Origin: Clostridia bacterium
GTDB taxonomy: Bacteria > Bacillota > Clostridia > Christensenellales > CAG-138
Reading direction: 5' to 3'
Assembly (NCBI GenBank): GCA_017394835.1
Contig: JAFPXD010000003.1
Location: 78,221 to 142,220, forward strand
Length of the DNA: 64,000 bases
Shown: one piece after another, positions 7,256-47,974 of the stretch
Layout of the letters: each line of letters opens with the position of its first letter
Position numbering within the stretch: position 1 is the stretch's first letter
Notes under the pieces: generated by a model
Told to the model about the DNA's origin: nothing
Seen by the model: the letters and a program-made list of their open reading frames with translations, nothing else
Database searches by the model: none
Translations under genes and position numbers: made by a program

Positions 7256-7906
7256 ATGAAAAGGTTTATCGCACTGCTTATCAGCGTTCTTTTGATCGCC
7301 TTGCTGCCCAATATGATCCTTGCCGAGGCGCAGTCCGAGCCCAAGGATGAGCTCATTCCCATCCACGAGGTTTATATAATGGGCTTCCGTCCCGCCGTTG
7401 CGGGCTCCACGCCGGAATTCGCCGATCCGCTTTTCACGTATGAGGGCGTATTCGATATTTACTCCCACGTCTATTCCTACTGGCATGACAATACGGAAGG
7501 ACACGATATGTTCGAAGAGCAGGTACCCTTCGTGATCGATCATGAATACAGCGAGGGATGCATGATCGCCGCTGGCGACGGCTATTATTTCGCGGAAGAC
7601 TGTGTTTTCTACATCAACGGGCACGCGGAATTCGTCGATTTTGTCATGCCGCATCAGTATTTCGATAACTGCGTATATGTTCAGTCGATCGCCTTCCCCT
7701 GCTATGAGCAGTACGTGCTCGGCGATATAAACGGTTCCGGCGCCATCGAAAGCGAAGACGCGCTCCTCGCGTTCCGCAGCGCAATGGGCCTTGGCACGTT
7801 CACCGAGGAGCAGGCTTTCATAGGCGACGTCAACTTCAGCGGCAGCGTGACCTCATCGGACGCCTTGAACATCCTCCGCGCCGCGCTTGGTATGATAGAG
7901 CTCTGA
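7256..7906 (+). CDS. Secreted dockerin-containing protein with an uncharacterised N-terminal domain
   Basis: ATG at 7256 lies 6 nt after AGGAG. Signal peptide MKRFIALLISVLLIALLPNMILAEA. C-terminal type I dockerin duplicated Ca-binding repeats (GDINGSGAIESEDAL, GDVNFSGSVTSSDAL). An extended -10 TGCTATAAT is at 7198-7206. Confidence 0.8.
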   Translation: MKRFIALLISVLLIALLPNMILAEAQSEPKDELIPIHEVYIMGFRPAVAGSTPEFADPLFTYEGVFDIYSHVYSYWHDNTEGHDMFEEQVPFVIDHEYSEGCMIAAGDGYYFAEDCVFYINGHAEFVDFVMPHQYFDNCVYVQSIAFPCYEQYVLGDINGSGAIESEDALLAFRSAMGLGTFTEEQAFIGDVNFSGSVTSSDALNILRAALGMIEL

Positions 7907-43936: not shown

Positions 43937-44440
43937 TCAGTGAGCCGCGTTTTCAACGTCCTTTCCGAGATCGCAGGTGAAAAGCCACCTTATCTCATCC
44001 CCGTCGGAAAGCTTATACTGTGAGCAGCCGTAATTGGGAAACACGCCGTTCACGCTGTACTCCCATCCGCTGAGCTCGCCGCAGTCAAACTCATAGATAT
44101 TGTTTATGCCCTCTATATAGGCGGAGTTATAGACGGGCGTGAACGAGGATTCCAAATGTATCCCTCTTGCGCGGAGCTCCCTTTGGAGCACGTCGAATAC
44201 CGTATCTCCTTCGGAGAAGGCGCACGTGACGGTATCCAATATTATCCCGTCCTCCGGGACAAGCTCCGCCTTGTTCGGATCGAGCATATCGCGGTTATCG
44301 AGGATGGTCCTGCAGTCTATATAGAGGGTGCAGGAAAGCTCTTGCCCGCCCGCTTCGTCATTCTTTTTGCAGGAGAAGGCAGCGCAGGTGAAAACCAATG
44401 CGAGCACAAGCGTTATAAAAAGCTTAATCCTTCTTTTCAT
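43937..44440 (-). CDS. DUF4430 (transcobalamin beta-domain-like) secreted or lipid-anchored protein
   Basis: Signal peptide ending FSC. The hallmark GELSGWEYSVNGVFPNYGCSQYKLSDGDEIRWLF is present. Third gene of the riboswitch-led operon. Confidence 0.75.
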   Translation of the reverse strand: MKRRIKLFITLVLALVFTCAAFSCKKNDEAGGQELSCTLYIDCRTILDNRDMLDPNKAELVPEDGIILDTVTCAFSEGDTVFDVLQRELRARGIHLESSFTPVYNSAYIEGINNIYEFDCGELSGWEYSVNGVFPNYGCSQYKLSDGDEIRWLFTCDLGKDVENAAH

Positions 44441-46010
44441 TCTTTCTCCTTACAGCTATCGCGGCCGCGCATACGGCTGTGACCGCCGCCGCTGCAAGCG
44501 GCAGCCAGAAGCCGATACCGGGCTTTTTTTCATTTTTGGCAGTATCGCCGTTTTCCTTCGCTGCCGCGGGTGTTTCGGATTCTGCCGCGGGCTCTGATGG
44601 CGCCTCTGTCGCAGGTATTGCCGTCGGCCCGGCGGTGGGTCCGGCCGGAGGTATGGTCGTCTCCGGGGTCGGAACGGAAGTCGGCGATCCGGTCGGCAAT
44701 TCACTCGGCACATCCGTCGGCGAATCGGTAGGAATATCCGTGGGCGCATCCGTAGGAGCTTCGGTTGGAGCGGCGGTCTGCGTTTGCAGAGGGGCGTCCG
44801 TCGCAGCAGGCGATTCGGTCGGCTTCGGGGTCGCCGTGGGCTTAGGAGTCGCCGTGGGCTTAGGCGTCGCTGTGGGCTTAGGGGTCGCCGTGGGTTTAGG
44901 CGTCGCCGTGGGCTTAGGAGTCGCCGTGGGCTTAGGAGTCGCCGTGGGCTTAGGAGTCGCCGAGGGCTTAGGCGTTGGCGTAGGCTTAGGCGTCGCCGTG
45001 GGCTTGGGAGTTGCCGTGGGCTTCGGGGTCGAAGTCGGTTTAGGCGTCGTTCCGCCGATGGGCGTCACATCGCTCATGTTATAAAGGTCGTTTTGACCTG
45101 CCCTGTATCTGGAATAGGCGCAGAGCGCGTATGCGGCCTGTTCAGAGGCCATTTGATTAACCACGCCTCCGGATATATGTGCGAAGCCGGAACCTCTGAA
45201 ATAGGCCGTGAGGGCGCTTAAAAGCGAATGCCCGTTTTTGATGAACCGCTGATCGGTATCCGGATCTATGCCGACGGTCGAAAGCGCGGTCACCACCTGC
45301 GCACAGCTTTCGCAGGTCGCGGTGCCGAACGAGGTGAAGCCGCCGTCGGGATCCTGGATAAGGGAAAGCCTTGCGACCGCCCTCTCTATCGCCGAGGACG
45401 CCCTTTGATACGGAGCGAGCGCGGTTATAACGATCCCCGTAACGTCGGGATCGGCCTCGCCGCTGCCGAGCACCCAGCCTCCGCCTGCAAGCTCCCTTCC
45501 GAGCAGGAAATCGACGTAAGCGTTTTTTGTCGCCGTTTCGCCATAGGAAGCGCGTGAATCGAGCGCGAGCAGCGCAAAAGCCGCTCCCGTTACGCCCTGC
45601 CGCTTCACTCCGCTTTGGTTGGTCAGCGGTTCAACAAGGTCATACCCCGAAACGTCACGTGCGTTCCTCCCTATTGAAGTGAGCGCGATCACGAGTCTCG
45701 AGTTTTCGGTAAGCTTATTGGAGTTTATAACTCCGCTCCCGTTTGCGGCGATCATCCGCTCAATGCGGCTGTAATAAGAGGAGCACCAAGCGTCCGCGGG
45801 CCCGACTCTTCCGCTCCTTGCGAGCGCAAAAACGAGCCATTCCCCGCCGACGGACCCGAACGAAGGCGTCATACCCTCGAAACGGTCAAGAGTCAGCTCA
45901 TAAGGGCGGGTATAATCTGTAGCGGCAAATGAGGAAAGCGGCGCCGCCGCCGTAAACAAAACGGCAAGCAGCACCGCGAAAAACCTTTTTTTAAGTGACG
46001 CCTTCATCAC
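44424..46010 (-). CDS. Surface protein: prenyltransferase/terpene-cyclase-like alpha/alpha-toroid domain + (TPKPTA)n linker + C-terminal TM anchor
   Basis: Signal peptide. Repeated toroid motifs (GGEWLVFALA, GGGWVLG, DPDVTGIVITAL, DPDGGFTS). 13 hexapeptide repeats, a Pro/Thr/Ala-rich stalk and a terminal TM followed by RRKNEKKD. Confidence 0.75.
   Translation of the reverse strand: MMKASLKKRFFAVLLAVLFTAAAPLSSFAATDYTRPYELTLDRFEGMTPSFGSVGGEWLVFALARSGRVGPADAWCSSYYSRIERMIAANGSGVINSNKLTENSRLVIALTSIGRNARDVSGYDLVEPLTNQSGVKRQGVTGAAFALLALDSRASYGETATKNAYVDFLLGRELAGGGWVLGSGEADPDVTGIVITALAPYQRASSAIERAVARLSLIQDPDGGFTSFGTATCESCAQVVTALSTVGIDPDTDQRFIKNGHSLLSALTAYFRGSGFAHISGGVVNQMASEQAAYALCAYSRYRAGQNDLYNMSDVTPIGGTTPKPTSTPKPTATPKPTATPKPTPTPKPSATPKPTATPKPTATPKPTATPKPTATPKPTATPKPTATPKPTATPKPTESPAATDAPLQTQTAAPTEAPTDAPTDIPTDSPTDVPSELPTGSPTSVPTPETTIPPAGPTAGPTAIPATEAPSEPAAESETPAAAKENGDTAKNEKKPGIGFWLPLAAAAVTAVCAAAIAVRRKNEKKD
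44821..45054 (-). repeat. 13 tandem 18-nt coding repeats (TPKPTA hexapeptide)
   Basis: On the plus strand: GGCTTAGGAGTCGCCGTG and variants, exact 18-nt period from 44821 to 45054. Confidence 0.9.
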
Positions 46011-46999
46011 ATGACCGCGCGCAGGATAAGGAGCGCGTCGCTAAGGTCGATCTCGCCGTCGCCATTGTAATCGGCATACATGAGGGCGATATCGGAGTCT
46101 TCAACAAGACCCATGCCATAGCGCATTACGAGAAGCGCGTCTTCGGAATTGACAACAAGATCAAGATTGACGTCGCCCATCTCGATCACGGGATTGAGGA
46201 AATCGCGTATCGCCTGCGCGGCGTCGTCGATCTCTGCCTGGGTGGCGTTCACATCAAAGAGCGCATCGAGGAAATTGTTGAAAAGCTCGGAATCACGGCC
46301 AAGCCTATCCATGGACTCCTCATCGGCATTAAGCTCGGCAAGCAGGCGGTCGGCTTCAACGCGGCTCACACCCTCCATGGGGTTGTCGAACAGGGGGAAG
46401 GAACCCCAGCCGTCGCTCAAGCCGTAATCCATACCCCAGCCGTAAATGGAGAAGAACCACTGATAGACGGAGCCGATATTGACGACGGTCGCATCCGCGC
46501 CGGTCGAAAGAGCGATATTGTCCTCAACGAACATCCAACCGGACATGGTGCAGTACTCGCCCGCGGAAAGGGAACGGTCATCATCGAATTCGCCGGTCCA
46601 CTCGCCGAAATTGTAGCCAAACTGCTCGTCCGCCCAATCGGGATAGGCAAGGATCTCGTTCATCAGATATTCGGGAACGTTGGGATCAGTGTATTCACAG
46701 CCGACGCCGGTGAGATAGAAGCCCTCCTCCACCGTGCCGTAATAGGAACACGCGCGGCCGGTCTCTTCGAATACGCGGGCCGTCACCGCGGCAAGAGTCT
46801 CGCCCTCGTGAACGGGAACGAGCTCGGGATACATGATGTAGCCCCATCCCATCGTAAGTGCGGAAACGCCGAATACGACGTAACCGTCATAGCCTTCGGG
46901 CACTTCGGGCACCTGGGGAGCTTCCGCAAGAGCGGGAACGCAGAGAAGGAGCATTGCGGCTGCGATCAGCGCGGCAAGGAAACGTTTGCAGGATTTCAT
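46007..46999 (-). CDS. Secreted DUF4430-like domain protein with a C-terminal type I dockerin
   Basis: Signal peptide (...VPALAEA). DUF4430-like core (SAGEYCTMSGWMFVEDN...GSVYQWFF). Dockerin repeats GDVNLDLVVNSEDAL and ADYNGDGEIDLSDAL. GGAGG RBS lies 9 nt upstream. Confidence 0.7.
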   Translation of the reverse strand: MKSCKRFLAALIAAAMLLLCVPALAEAPQVPEVPEGYDGYVVFGVSALTMGWGYIMYPELVPVHEGETLAAVTARVFEETGRACSYYGTVEEGFYLTGVGCEYTDPNVPEYLMNEILAYPDWADEQFGYNFGEWTGEFDDDRSLSAGEYCTMSGWMFVEDNIALSTGADATVVNIGSVYQWFFSIYGWGMDYGLSDGWGSFPLFDNPMEGVSRVEADRLLAELNADEESMDRLGRDSELFNNFLDALFDVNATQAEIDDAAQAIRDFLNPVIEMGDVNLDLVVNSEDALLVMRYGMGLVEDSDIALMYADYNGDGEIDLSDALLILRAVM

Positions 47000-47029: not shown

Positions 47030-47225
47030 GTCTGCGGCCCATAAGGGAGAATACTCTCCCCCGGCATAGAGCTCCTGCGCAAGGTCTTCCGGCTCGCGGC
47101 TTGACCTAATCGCCCTGCCTTCCCACGCATTATGCGCAGTGACTTGATCCGGGCTTTCGTATCCGCATACGGCAGCGGAGGCTGCTGCGGCATTTCACCG
47201 CATTCCCTTTTCGCAGCAAGCTTTT
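47030..47225 (-). ncRNA. Cobalamin (B12) riboswitch
   Basis: The minus-strand RNA reads ...AAAAGGGAAUGCGGUGAAAUGCCGCAGCAGCCUCCGCUGCCGUAUGCGG...GUCACUGCGCAUAAUGCGUGGGAAGGC...GAGCCGGAAGACCUUGCGCAGG. This matches the conserved core (AAGGGAA-N-GGUGAAA-N-CCGC...CCCGCUxCxGU), the GCCACUG...GGGAAGGC element and the B12 box (AGCCaGGAgACCUGCc). It lies between a promoter and the operon RBS. Confidence 0.8.
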
Positions 47226-47235
47226 TGCCAATATG

Positions 47236-47264
47236 AATATAGCATTGCGTATCCGCTTTGTCAA
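47236..47264 (-). promoter_or_regulatory. Sigma-A type promoter driving the B12 riboswitch operon
   Basis: On the minus strand: TTGACA (47264-47259), 17-nt spacer, TATATT (47241-47236). Confidence 0.55.
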
Positions 47265-47323
47265 TAGGAAATGGGCCCTTCGGCATCATATACAGGCTGA
47301 CGCCCGGCCTCTTTCCCCATCGG

Positions 47324-47974
47324 TTACGCGGGGAAGAACGCGTTATGGCCCAATCTTATCAAAAACGCTATCGCAAGGGTCATAACCGCCATCATAACGA
47401 CCGACAGGTACCATCTGCCGCCCTTATTGAAGCCGTAAAAATCCTCCCAGCCGCCTTTTTCGGGGCCCTTGATAACGACCATCCTGAAATACACGCAGCC
47501 GTATATCACAACGGGAATGAGCGCGAGCCATACGGCGAAAAGAGGGAGCCTGCCGCCTCCGTCGAAGAGTATGCAGGAAGCCATACAGAGCACGGGCACA
47601 ATAAGGTGCAGATGGAGGCTGCCGCCTTCCAGCATGTGCGCGTAACCCGCATAAGGCGCAAGCAGCAGCATGACGACGAAGAACGTGACTCCCACGGCTG
47701 CGGCGCCCACGAATTTAAGGATGGCGGCCCATTCGGGGATCGCCTCCCCCGTAAAGAAGCCTATTATATTGAACACGAGCATTATGATGCACGCCGCGGC
47801 TGCCAAAAGGTTTGAATCGACGGTGAAATACTCAAAGCACCTCGCCTTTTTTACCTGCATATTCGCCCTGCCGCCCTTTGCGGAATAGAATTCGAGCATT
47901 GCGACGGCAACAAGCGCCGCCGATACCGCATTGCAAAGCGCCGAAAGTATGTTGTTTATCAAGCCCCTGTCCAT
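47324..47974 (-). CDS. Integral membrane protein (possibly Pr6Pr family)
   Basis: 216 aa with about 6 TM helices and a YFTVDSNLL motif. The family label is recalled from memory only. An extended -10 TGCTATAAT is at 48023-48015. Confidence 0.55.
   Translation of the reverse strand: MDRGLINNILSALCNAVSAALVAVAMLEFYSAKGGRANMQVKKARCFEYFTVDSNLLAAAACIIMLVFNIIGFFTGEAIPEWAAILKFVGAAAVGVTFFVVMLLLAPYAGYAHMLEGGSLHLHLIVPVLCMASCILFDGGGRLPLFAVWLALIPVVIYGCVYFRMVVIKGPEKGGWEDFYGFNKGGRWYLSVVMMAVMTLAIAFLIRLGHNAFFPA

Follow-up and report, generated by a model that had tools for sequence, protein, structure and literature searches.

A cobalamin riboswitch-led operon encoding a dockerin-bearing, transcobalamin-like protein in a Clostridia bacterium

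The DNA analysed was a stretch of 64,000 nucleotides (nt), hereafter the window, from a Clostridia bacterium of the Christensenellales (GenBank assembly GCA_017394835.1, contig JAFPXD010000003.1, positions 78,221 to 142,220 of the forward strand). Its subject is an operon of three genes on the reverse strand, the products of which are here termed p1, p2 and p3. The first gene lies behind a cobalamin riboswitch and encodes a secreted protein of 330 amino acids (aa) in which a transcobalamin-beta-like body is joined to a type I dockerin. The features of the operon are given below in window coordinates, and the anatomy that they describe is regarded as almost certain.

47236..47264 (-), sigma-70-like promoter: TTGACA, 17 nt spacer, TG-TATATT
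47062..47266 (-), cobalamin riboswitch aptamer RF00174, 88.7 bits against a gathering score of 31.5
46007..46999 (-), p1, secreted 330-aa protein: extended DUF4430/transcobalamin-beta-like body, helical linker, type I dockerin
46925..46999 (-), p1 predicted signal peptide, residues 1-25, ...VPALA/EA, read from the sequence
46370..46894 (-), p1 body, residues 36-210: DUF4430/SLBB beta-grasp with a helical insert of ~42 residues
46196..46360 (-), p1 helical linker, residues 214-268
46016..46177 (-), p1 type I dockerin, residues 275-328 (Pfam Dockerin_1, PF00404)
44424..46007 (-), p2: signal peptide, alpha/alpha-toroid, Pro/Thr/Lys stalk, C-terminal membrane anchor
45051..45923 (-), p2 toroid domain, about residues 30-320, with PDB sequence matches to squalene-hopene-cyclase C-domain proteins
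44526..45050 (-), p2 low-complexity stalk, including (TPKPTA)n, with no PDB matches other than Pro/Thr linkers
44451..44516 (-), p2 C-terminal transmembrane anchor IGFWLPLAAAAVTAVCAAAIAV followed by RRKNEKKD, read from the translation
43937..44440 (-), p3, 167-aa DUF4430 protein with a signal or lipoprotein-type N-terminus and a likely lipid anchor

The operon and its proteins

The aptamer was matched by Rfam over the full model (positions 1-189, E=1.4e-20), and 62 nt separate its 3' end from the p1 ATG on the same strand, with p1 as the first gene of the operon. The promoter was assigned by consensus match only (11 of 12 hexamer positions and an extended -10 TG) and overlaps the first positions of the aptamer match, at the 5' edge of the riboswitch. 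The three genes are tightly packed. GGAGG stands 9 nt before the p1 ATG; the p1 TGA overlaps the likely p2 ATG at 46007 as TGATG; and p3 starts 17 nt inside the end of p2, with AGGAG before its ATG. No importer gene is present among the three.

An earlier sequence-only reading of the window had placed a duplicated type I dockerin at the C-terminus of the first protein behind the B12 riboswitch, and both the position of the open reading frame (ORF) and the nature of its C-terminus were confirmed. PF00404 matched p1 at 37.9 bits (cut-off 22.9, E=2e-9) and matched all 24 aligned members of the p1 family; the quoted motifs GDVNLDLVVNSEDAL and ADYNGDGEIDLSDAL are present in the ORF, and the family profile matched solved dockerins of the PDB down to E=5.7e-13. 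By Foldseek the modelled dockerin superposed on the Clostridium thermocellum structure 1ohz_B with a template-modelling (TM) score of 0.92 and a root-mean-square deviation of 1.0 A, followed by 2ccl_B (0.86) and 4fl4 (0.77). The two 12-residue Ca loops, DVNLDLVVNSED and DYNGDGEIDLSD, both carry D or N at positions 1, 3, 5, 9 and 12, and all the ligand positions are kept. Among 80 full-length relatives of p1 (E<=1e-57) a precomputed PF00404 match was recorded for 78, and the dockerin was invariant across 25 near-identical versions of p1 (98-99% identical) in public databases.

The N-terminal body was assigned by profile and fold. PF14478 was matched by 16 of 24 p1 orthologues (best 1.6e-6), and the p1 family profile aligned to p3, the DUF4430 protein of the same operon, with an hhalign probability of 94% (E=1.3e-7); this alignment places the helical insert of p1 at about residues 102-143. 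An AlphaFold2 model of p1, built from an alignment of 24 relatives, had a mean predicted local distance difference test (pLDDT) score of 86.7. When it was searched with Foldseek the top 19 matches were transcobalamin, haptocorrin, intrinsic factor and 3u7z; the body matched the isolated beta domain of human transcobalamin (5np4) with TMt 0.76 and probability 1.00, and further matches were found to transcobalamin 2bb5, haptocorrin 4kki, intrinsic factor 2pmv and the DUF4430 structure 3u7z. Searches of PDB sequences with p1 returned only dockerins and EF-hands and nothing for the body, and p3 returned no match at all; the link to transcobalamin needs fold or profile comparison. The body is a divergent DUF4430/transcobalamin-beta-like paralogue. 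It ends in a conserved, Gly/Trp-rich tail (YGWGMDxGxSDGWGxFPxFDNP), and the linker that follows is modelled as four helices (residues 214-225, 227-235, 237-248 and 254-268). The N-terminus has a basic start and, in the model, a hydrophobic helix at residues 2-20 and disorder at 22-27. The earlier reading of a dockerin on a non-enzymatic, riboswitch-controlled module of ligand-binding type is supported. Two relatives (P0028, 569 aa, and P0030, 577 aa) and the locus L019:3701-5398 have two tandem extended DUF4430 bodies before a single dockerin.

Residues 165-254 of p2 matched the SQHop_cyclase_C proteins 7xq4 and 8zg1 in the PDB sequence search (E=7e-9), and its C-terminal anchor gave a weak CoaP_CTERM-like NCBIfam match. 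PF14478 was found in p3 at residues 78-155 (67.5 bits against 23.8). No cohesin-like region was found in p2 or p3 by Pfam or NCBIfam. Since a toroid together with a beta-grasp domain is the architecture of transcobalamin, the three-gene set is likened to it: to judge from domain content, p1, p2 and p3 resemble a split transcobalamin, of which p1 would be one subunit and not a stand-alone binder.

Related loci and fused relatives

A scan of one genome per species yielded 33 loci encoding relatives of p1. The order p1, p2, p3 was kept in all 33 wherever the DNA reaches. The p2 toroid gene adjoins p1 in every locus and is fused to it in seven; p3 was present in 30, the other three loci ending inside or just after p2. 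A cobalamin (Cbl) or adenosylcobalamin (AdoCbl) riboswitch stands directly upstream on the same strand in 32 of the 33. Loci of the window type (26 of 33) came mostly from uncultured rumen or gut Clostridia, including records of Christensenellaceae and Clostridium sp. CAG:138. Of the genomes in which p1 is split and carries a dockerin, five others had 4-9 cohesin modules each, and cohesins were therefore present in all six split-type genomes tested, that of the window included. When 301 genomes of the window's order were searched with the p1 profile, matches to the dockerin alone dominated the outcome, and the number of genomes with a match to the body could be put only roughly, at ~10. Within the family to which the window's genome belongs, a p1-like body with an internal dockerin was seen in ORFs of 964-974 aa (G122:C1:127938-129059 and G276:C1:124385-125509), in which several hundred more residues follow the dockerin in frame.

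The remaining seven loci (L035-L041), here called the Clostridium type, share with the window a DUF4430 body, a toroid, a DUF4430 protein as third gene, a Cbl or AdoCbl riboswitch and a dockerin. They differ in that the p1 body and the p2 toroid form a single dockerin-terminated protein of ~885 aa, and in that the operon has a dedicated membrane cohesin and an energy-coupling factor (ECF) importer; in the window the two parts are split and the operon has neither cohesin nor importer. DUF4430, SQHop_cyclase_C and Dockerin_1 were each matched in seven of seven fusion proteins. The toroid of p2 is 38-42% identical to the toroid part of the fusions, and p3 matched their p1-like part at E=1e-9 to 1e-12. 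The fusion of body and toroid suggests that p1 and p2 work together.

The gene after the fusion encodes a protein of ~211-241 aa in which a membrane helix at the N-terminus is joined to a cohesin domain (7/7, best E=2.3e-8); a profile of these operon cohesins matched solved cohesins weakly. There follow a longer DUF4430 protein and an EcfT-like gene, the latter in all seven loci, and then, where the locus reaches (L035, L037 and L038), an S component. The S component of L037 matched 6fnp_A (E=1e-10), a chain titled only 'Membrane protein' in the database, which we take to be the ECF-CbrT B12 importer. The operon cohesin was the only cohesin match in four of five Clostridium-type genomes, and the fusion carried the only dockerin match in three of four; in three of the four genomes tested for both modules, the operon pair was the sole cohesin and the sole dockerin. 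This private pair within a B12 operon gives strong comparative support, the strongest available, for a tethering role of the dockerin in the family.

A wider search with the fusion retrieved >3,990 relatives in which the anchoring modules varied by lineage: SLH in Paenibacillus, Big_2 and CWB2 in Terrisporobacter and Romboutsia, and dockerins in Clostridium, Christensenellaceae and Faecalimicrobium. The dockerin thus appears as one of several interchangeable mounts for the same capture protein. In an AlphaFold2 model of one fusion the toroid matched transcobalamin over ~355 columns with probability 1.00. Between toroid and dockerin of the L039 fusion (L039:7620-8300, residues ~583-810) the model has beta-sandwich domains, whose best structural matches were the cohesins 2w1n, 2xdh and 5lxv_A (probability 1.00); a relative, P0126, has a precomputed PF00963 match. 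The capture protein of the Clostridium type may, on this modelling, carry both a cohesin-like module and a dockerin.

Directly upstream of the riboswitch in the window lies a gene for a Pr6Pr-family membrane protein (47324-47974 (-), 31.8 bits against a cut-off of 30), outside the riboswitch-controlled unit. A gene of this family holds the same position in nine of the 33 related loci. Downstream of the p1-p2-p3 operon is an unrelated polysaccharide operon of CapD type.

Cohesins, dockerin cargo and corrinoid genes of the genome

The genome to which the window belongs (2.38 Mb, 55.6% G+C, 93% complete) was found to contain 10 cohesin modules over threshold. Four of them lie in one frame at G000:C24:106274-109018, in a scaffoldin with PPVTG, then a hydrophobic stretch, then basic residues at its C-terminus; a single cohesin at G000:C36:28759-29742 has a similar tail. 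Both tails are presumed to be sortase-type or membrane anchors, by comparison with the (S/P)PxTG signals of Clostridia. A further cohesin protein, G000:C42:153-3389, is cut at the contig start and ends in long repeats of the TGRETTGRE type.

Dockerins are numerous in the same genome, with 43 matches in 43 ORFs. One of these, on the other strand of the window, had been pointed out in the sequence-only reading and proved real:

7166/7256-7906 (+), second dockerin protein, 216-246 aa depending on the start codon; Dockerin_1 at 7718-7873, 31.8 bits

Its signal peptide is accompanied by an N-terminal domain of ~150 aa to which no family is assigned. Leaving aside this protein and p1, the cargo of 36 full-length dockerin proteins was surveyed through its 25 commonest Pfam families. 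Listeria-Bacteroides repeats were most frequent (10), followed by Big_2 (4), Cleaved_Adhesin (3) and cohesin (3); leucine-rich repeats of BspA type, subtilases, CotH, MucBP, M23 peptidase, endonuclease I and lipase also occurred. No glycoside hydrolase (GH) was among the 25, six single-member families standing outside that set. GH48 and GH9 were not found in the 93%-complete genome, and one clear GH5 match, with a second below the cut-off, lay in no dockerin ORF. On these absences the system is not a cellulosome; by its gene content it is a non-cellulosomal display. With non-enzymatic cargo as the norm here, p1 does not extend cellulosome-type display, as the earlier reading had supposed, for the cargo consists of adhesin repeats, proteases, nuclease and lipase.

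The p1 dockerin is 55-59% identical to several other dockerins of its genome, as close as to the dockerins of its orthologues. It is thus of the genome's common type, unlike the private pair of the Clostridium-type operons, whose fusion dockerins are of a different type. The simplest reading is that p1 would use the public cohesin sockets of the cell. Use of cohesins outside cellulose degradation has precedent in the non-cellulosomal cohesins of Archaeoglobus fulgidus (2xdh) and Clostridium perfringens GH84C (2w1n/2jh2). Non-cellulosomal cohesin-dockerin systems were reportedly the subject of Peer et al. in 2009, and dockerins occur on proteins other than carbohydrate-active enzymes (CAZymes) in Ruminococcus flavefaciens and R. 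bromii.

Four cobalamin riboswitches were located in the genome, the one at the p1 operon included. One other precedes a gene for a CbiK-like cobaltochelatase, and the last two stand back to back at G000:C65:67293-67820. In one direction from this pair lie an exported lipoprotein of 393 aa, whose CbiK-like domain scored 168 bits to SiroCoChCbiK, and an exported protein of 375 aa that was read by eye as BtuF-like and had no NCBIfam match. In the divergent direction are a BtuC-like permease, a corrinoid-type ATP-binding cassette (ABC) ATPase (BtuD-like), a CbiC-like protein, CbiD and CbiF, of which CbiD and CbiF exceeded their equivalog cut-offs; inspection by eye of further genes in this direction suggested cbiA, cbiG, cbiH and a fused cbiJ/E/T. 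The extracytoplasmic CbiK-like protein thus adjoins corrinoid importer genes. By these annotations the cell has an importer to receive corrinoid as well as genes for ring synthesis.

A candidate corrinoid capture system and its alternatives

Transcobalamin consists of a toroid and a beta domain that sandwich one B12 (PMC1796856). A transcobalamin-like clade of bacterial SLBB domains was defined by Burroughs, Balaji, Iyer and Aravind (2007, Biol Direct 2:4; PMC1796856), who described signal peptides, toroid fusions of both domain orders, neighbouring CbiO/CbiQ genes and, within the operon, a further SLBB paralogue. The same authors predicted scavenging of extracellular B12 or its precursors in Gram-positive bacteria, allowed for a distinct metabolite in producers, and noted that the carriers of these proteins usually lack B12 synthesis (PMC1796856). 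The p1 operon is like that system in its secreted SLBB (DUF4430) protein, in the fused or adjoining toroid and in the second SLBB paralogue; it differs in that the 2007 operons carry CbiO/CbiQ, whereas the window's operon has no importer and its genome has cbi genes. The fusions and anchors described in 2007 were Gram-positive anchors, Ig, FIVAR, fasciclin and propeller domains, and the words dockerin, cohesin and riboswitch are absent from the text (PMC1796856).

Searches of the literature returned no paper joining DUF4430 with dockerin, or dockerin with 'cobalamin riboswitch', and none describing a dockerin on a vitamin-binding or riboswitch-controlled protein. Of the ten papers that mention dockerin, cohesin and vitamin B12, nine made no link between these topics in their titles or abstracts; in the tenth (PMC10553843) the dockerin passages concern cell adhesion, without B12. 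The idea of a transcobalamin-like scavenger thus dates from 2007, and the dockerin tether is in no paper found. Of the earlier proposal that a vitamin is scavenged by way of a scaffold, the tethering half has gained comparative support, and the scavenger half had already been predicted (PMC1796856).

The human carriers transcobalamin, intrinsic factor and haptocorrin (2bb5, 5np4, 2pmv and 4kki) have the same two folds as p1 and p2. Identity to them is only 13-18%, however, and the bacterial fusions have the reversed order, beta then alpha. In the window the two parts are separate genes, p1 has in addition the insert of ~42 residues and the Gly/Trp-rich tail, and anchoring would be through dockerin, stalk and transmembrane segment rather than through a receptor.

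On this evidence it is probable, in our judgement, that the locus encodes a riboswitch-controlled, split transcobalamin-like system for corrinoid capture, with p1 as an outer beta-type subunit held on a resident cohesin. Low intracellular cobalamin would permit expression of the operon, if this riboswitch follows the general behaviour of its class. Three exported proteins would then be made from the overlapping genes: p1 with its dockerin, the p2 toroid on an anchored stalk, and p3 at the membrane. By analogy with transcobalamin, we infer that the p2 toroid holds a corrinoid over which p1 and/or p3, as beta-type subunit, would close. The Ca-binding dockerin of p1 would plug into a resident cohesin, most plausibly in the anchored scaffoldins C24:106274-109018 or C36:28759-29742, and docking would hold p1 at the outer surface beside the adhesins and proteases that use the same sockets. 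The captured corrinoid could be passed inward to the BtuF-like protein and the BtuCD-type ABC importer encoded on contig C65.

Several findings weigh against this interpretation, some of them general and others better taken with the alternatives that they favour. The window's own p1 had no match to PF14478 at E<=0.1, and the DUF4430-like body of the sequence-only reading therefore stands as a divergent paralogue, by the orthologues, hhalign and fold, and not on the direct match of its own sequence. No clear terminator-like site was seen between the aptamer and the p1 ATG, and the riboswitch leader folded no better than its shuffles (z=-0.10), leaving no convincing expression platform. One relative in 33, L012, is without the riboswitch. 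Its leader seems to have been deleted, for only ~105 nt (L012:5895-6001) separate p1 from the upstream gene for a Pr6Pr-like membrane protein. In the model of the fusion the domains folded well and no closed, transcobalamin-like packing was shown; with a predicted TM (pTM) score of 0.47, the packing of the domains is uninformative.

The ligand may be a tetrapyrrole other than cobalamin, for instance heme, or an incomplete corrinoid such as cobinamide or cobyric acid taken up for salvage and remodelling. The riboswitch would in that case only couple expression to the corrinoid pool. The presence of cbi genes does not fit the simple picture of an auxotrophic scavenger, and these ring-synthesis genes, together with two CbiK-like chelatases, one of them an exported lipoprotein behind a riboswitch, agree better with salvage of precursors than with pure auxotrophy. 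The wording of 2007 also leaves room for it, since it speaks of 'B12 or its precursors' and, for producers, admits a different metabolite (PMC1796856). In Lactobacillus sakei, moreover, a split alpha/beta transcobalamin-like pair in an ECF operon has been proposed to take up heme (bioRxiv 10.1101/864751). That claim rests on docking, however (bioRxiv 10.1101/864751), and the closest folds to the window's proteins are B12 carriers. A Cbl or AdoCbl riboswitch before nearly all the related loci, in two distant clades, and the match of the L037 S component to what is presumably a B12 importer likewise point to cobalamin, and another ligand is considered rather unlikely.

It is, secondly, conceivable that the dockerin does not tether p1 to a scaffold of its own cell: p1 may be released as a soluble corrinoid carrier and caught again by p2, or its dockerin may be vestigial and bind Ca less well. 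At position 6 of loop 1 (p1 residue 281) a Leu stands in place of a near-universal Gly, which an 89%-identical relative (P0025) retains. This Leu is fixed in the 25 near-identical database versions and is thus not an assembly error. There is also no cohesin in or near the p1 operon, and no homologue of the operon-type (Clostridium) cohesin was found in the 93%-complete genome; p2 and p3 have membrane anchors of their own, so that the system could work without a third. Against this stand the retention of the dockerin in nearly all full-length relatives, its invariance among the near-identical versions, the intact Ca-ligand positions, its likeness to the other dockerins of the genome, the cohesins of all six split-type genomes, and a distant clade that keeps a private cohesin-dockerin pair for the same system. 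An untethered p1 is accordingly held to be quite improbable.

That the dockerin serves assembly rather than anchoring, by binding another capture component or the cohesin of a neighbouring cell (cross-feeding or piracy), is very unlikely, although the Clostridium-type fusion has a cohesin-like beta-sandwich between toroid and dockerin, P0126 matches PF00963 and three dockerin proteins of the window's genome also carry cohesins, because p2 and p3 have no cohesin-like region and only the low-complexity stalk follows the p2 toroid.

The preferred interpretation, riboswitch-controlled capture of corrinoid with p1 held on a resident cohesin, has a functional analogue in Bacteroides, where the riboswitch-linked surface accessory proteins BtuG and BtuH catch cobamides ahead of the transporter (PMC8941943, PMC10404256). 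These differ in having unrelated folds, a Gram-negative outer membrane and a lipid anchor instead of a dockerin. A link of BtuH to the DUF4430 proteins was considered and dropped, as the BtuH paper contains neither DUF4430 nor transcobalamin. We would also advance, as a tentative and possible extension only, that the cohesin-dockerin system is a general, wall-anchored socket board whose cargo changes with nutrient status. The riboswitch would load a vitamin-capture subunit onto it under B12 limitation, corrinoid might be relayed from p1 (scaffold) to p2 (stalk), p3 (membrane) and BtuF-CD, and the lineage may have evolved from a private pair to the use of a public scaffold. Such a Gram-positive relay would be analogous to that of BtuG and BtuH in Bacteroides.

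The advance is a variant of the scavenger idea of 2007 and not a new principle. B12 holds a keystone place among the micronutrients of gut and rumen communities, and its capture at the surface has been worked out for Bacteroides and hardly studied experimentally in Gram-positive Clostridia. For these the operon offers a concrete candidate, a three-protein capture system with kinship to the carriers of B12 in humans. It also links the cohesin-dockerin connector, which is familiar mainly from complexes that degrade fibre, to the mounting of such a system on the cell. Where the operon pair is the sole cohesin and dockerin of a genome, it constitutes a minimal pair that would be convenient for biochemistry, while the common-type dockerin in the window's genome raises the question of how a nutrient-regulated cargo shares its scaffold with other proteins.

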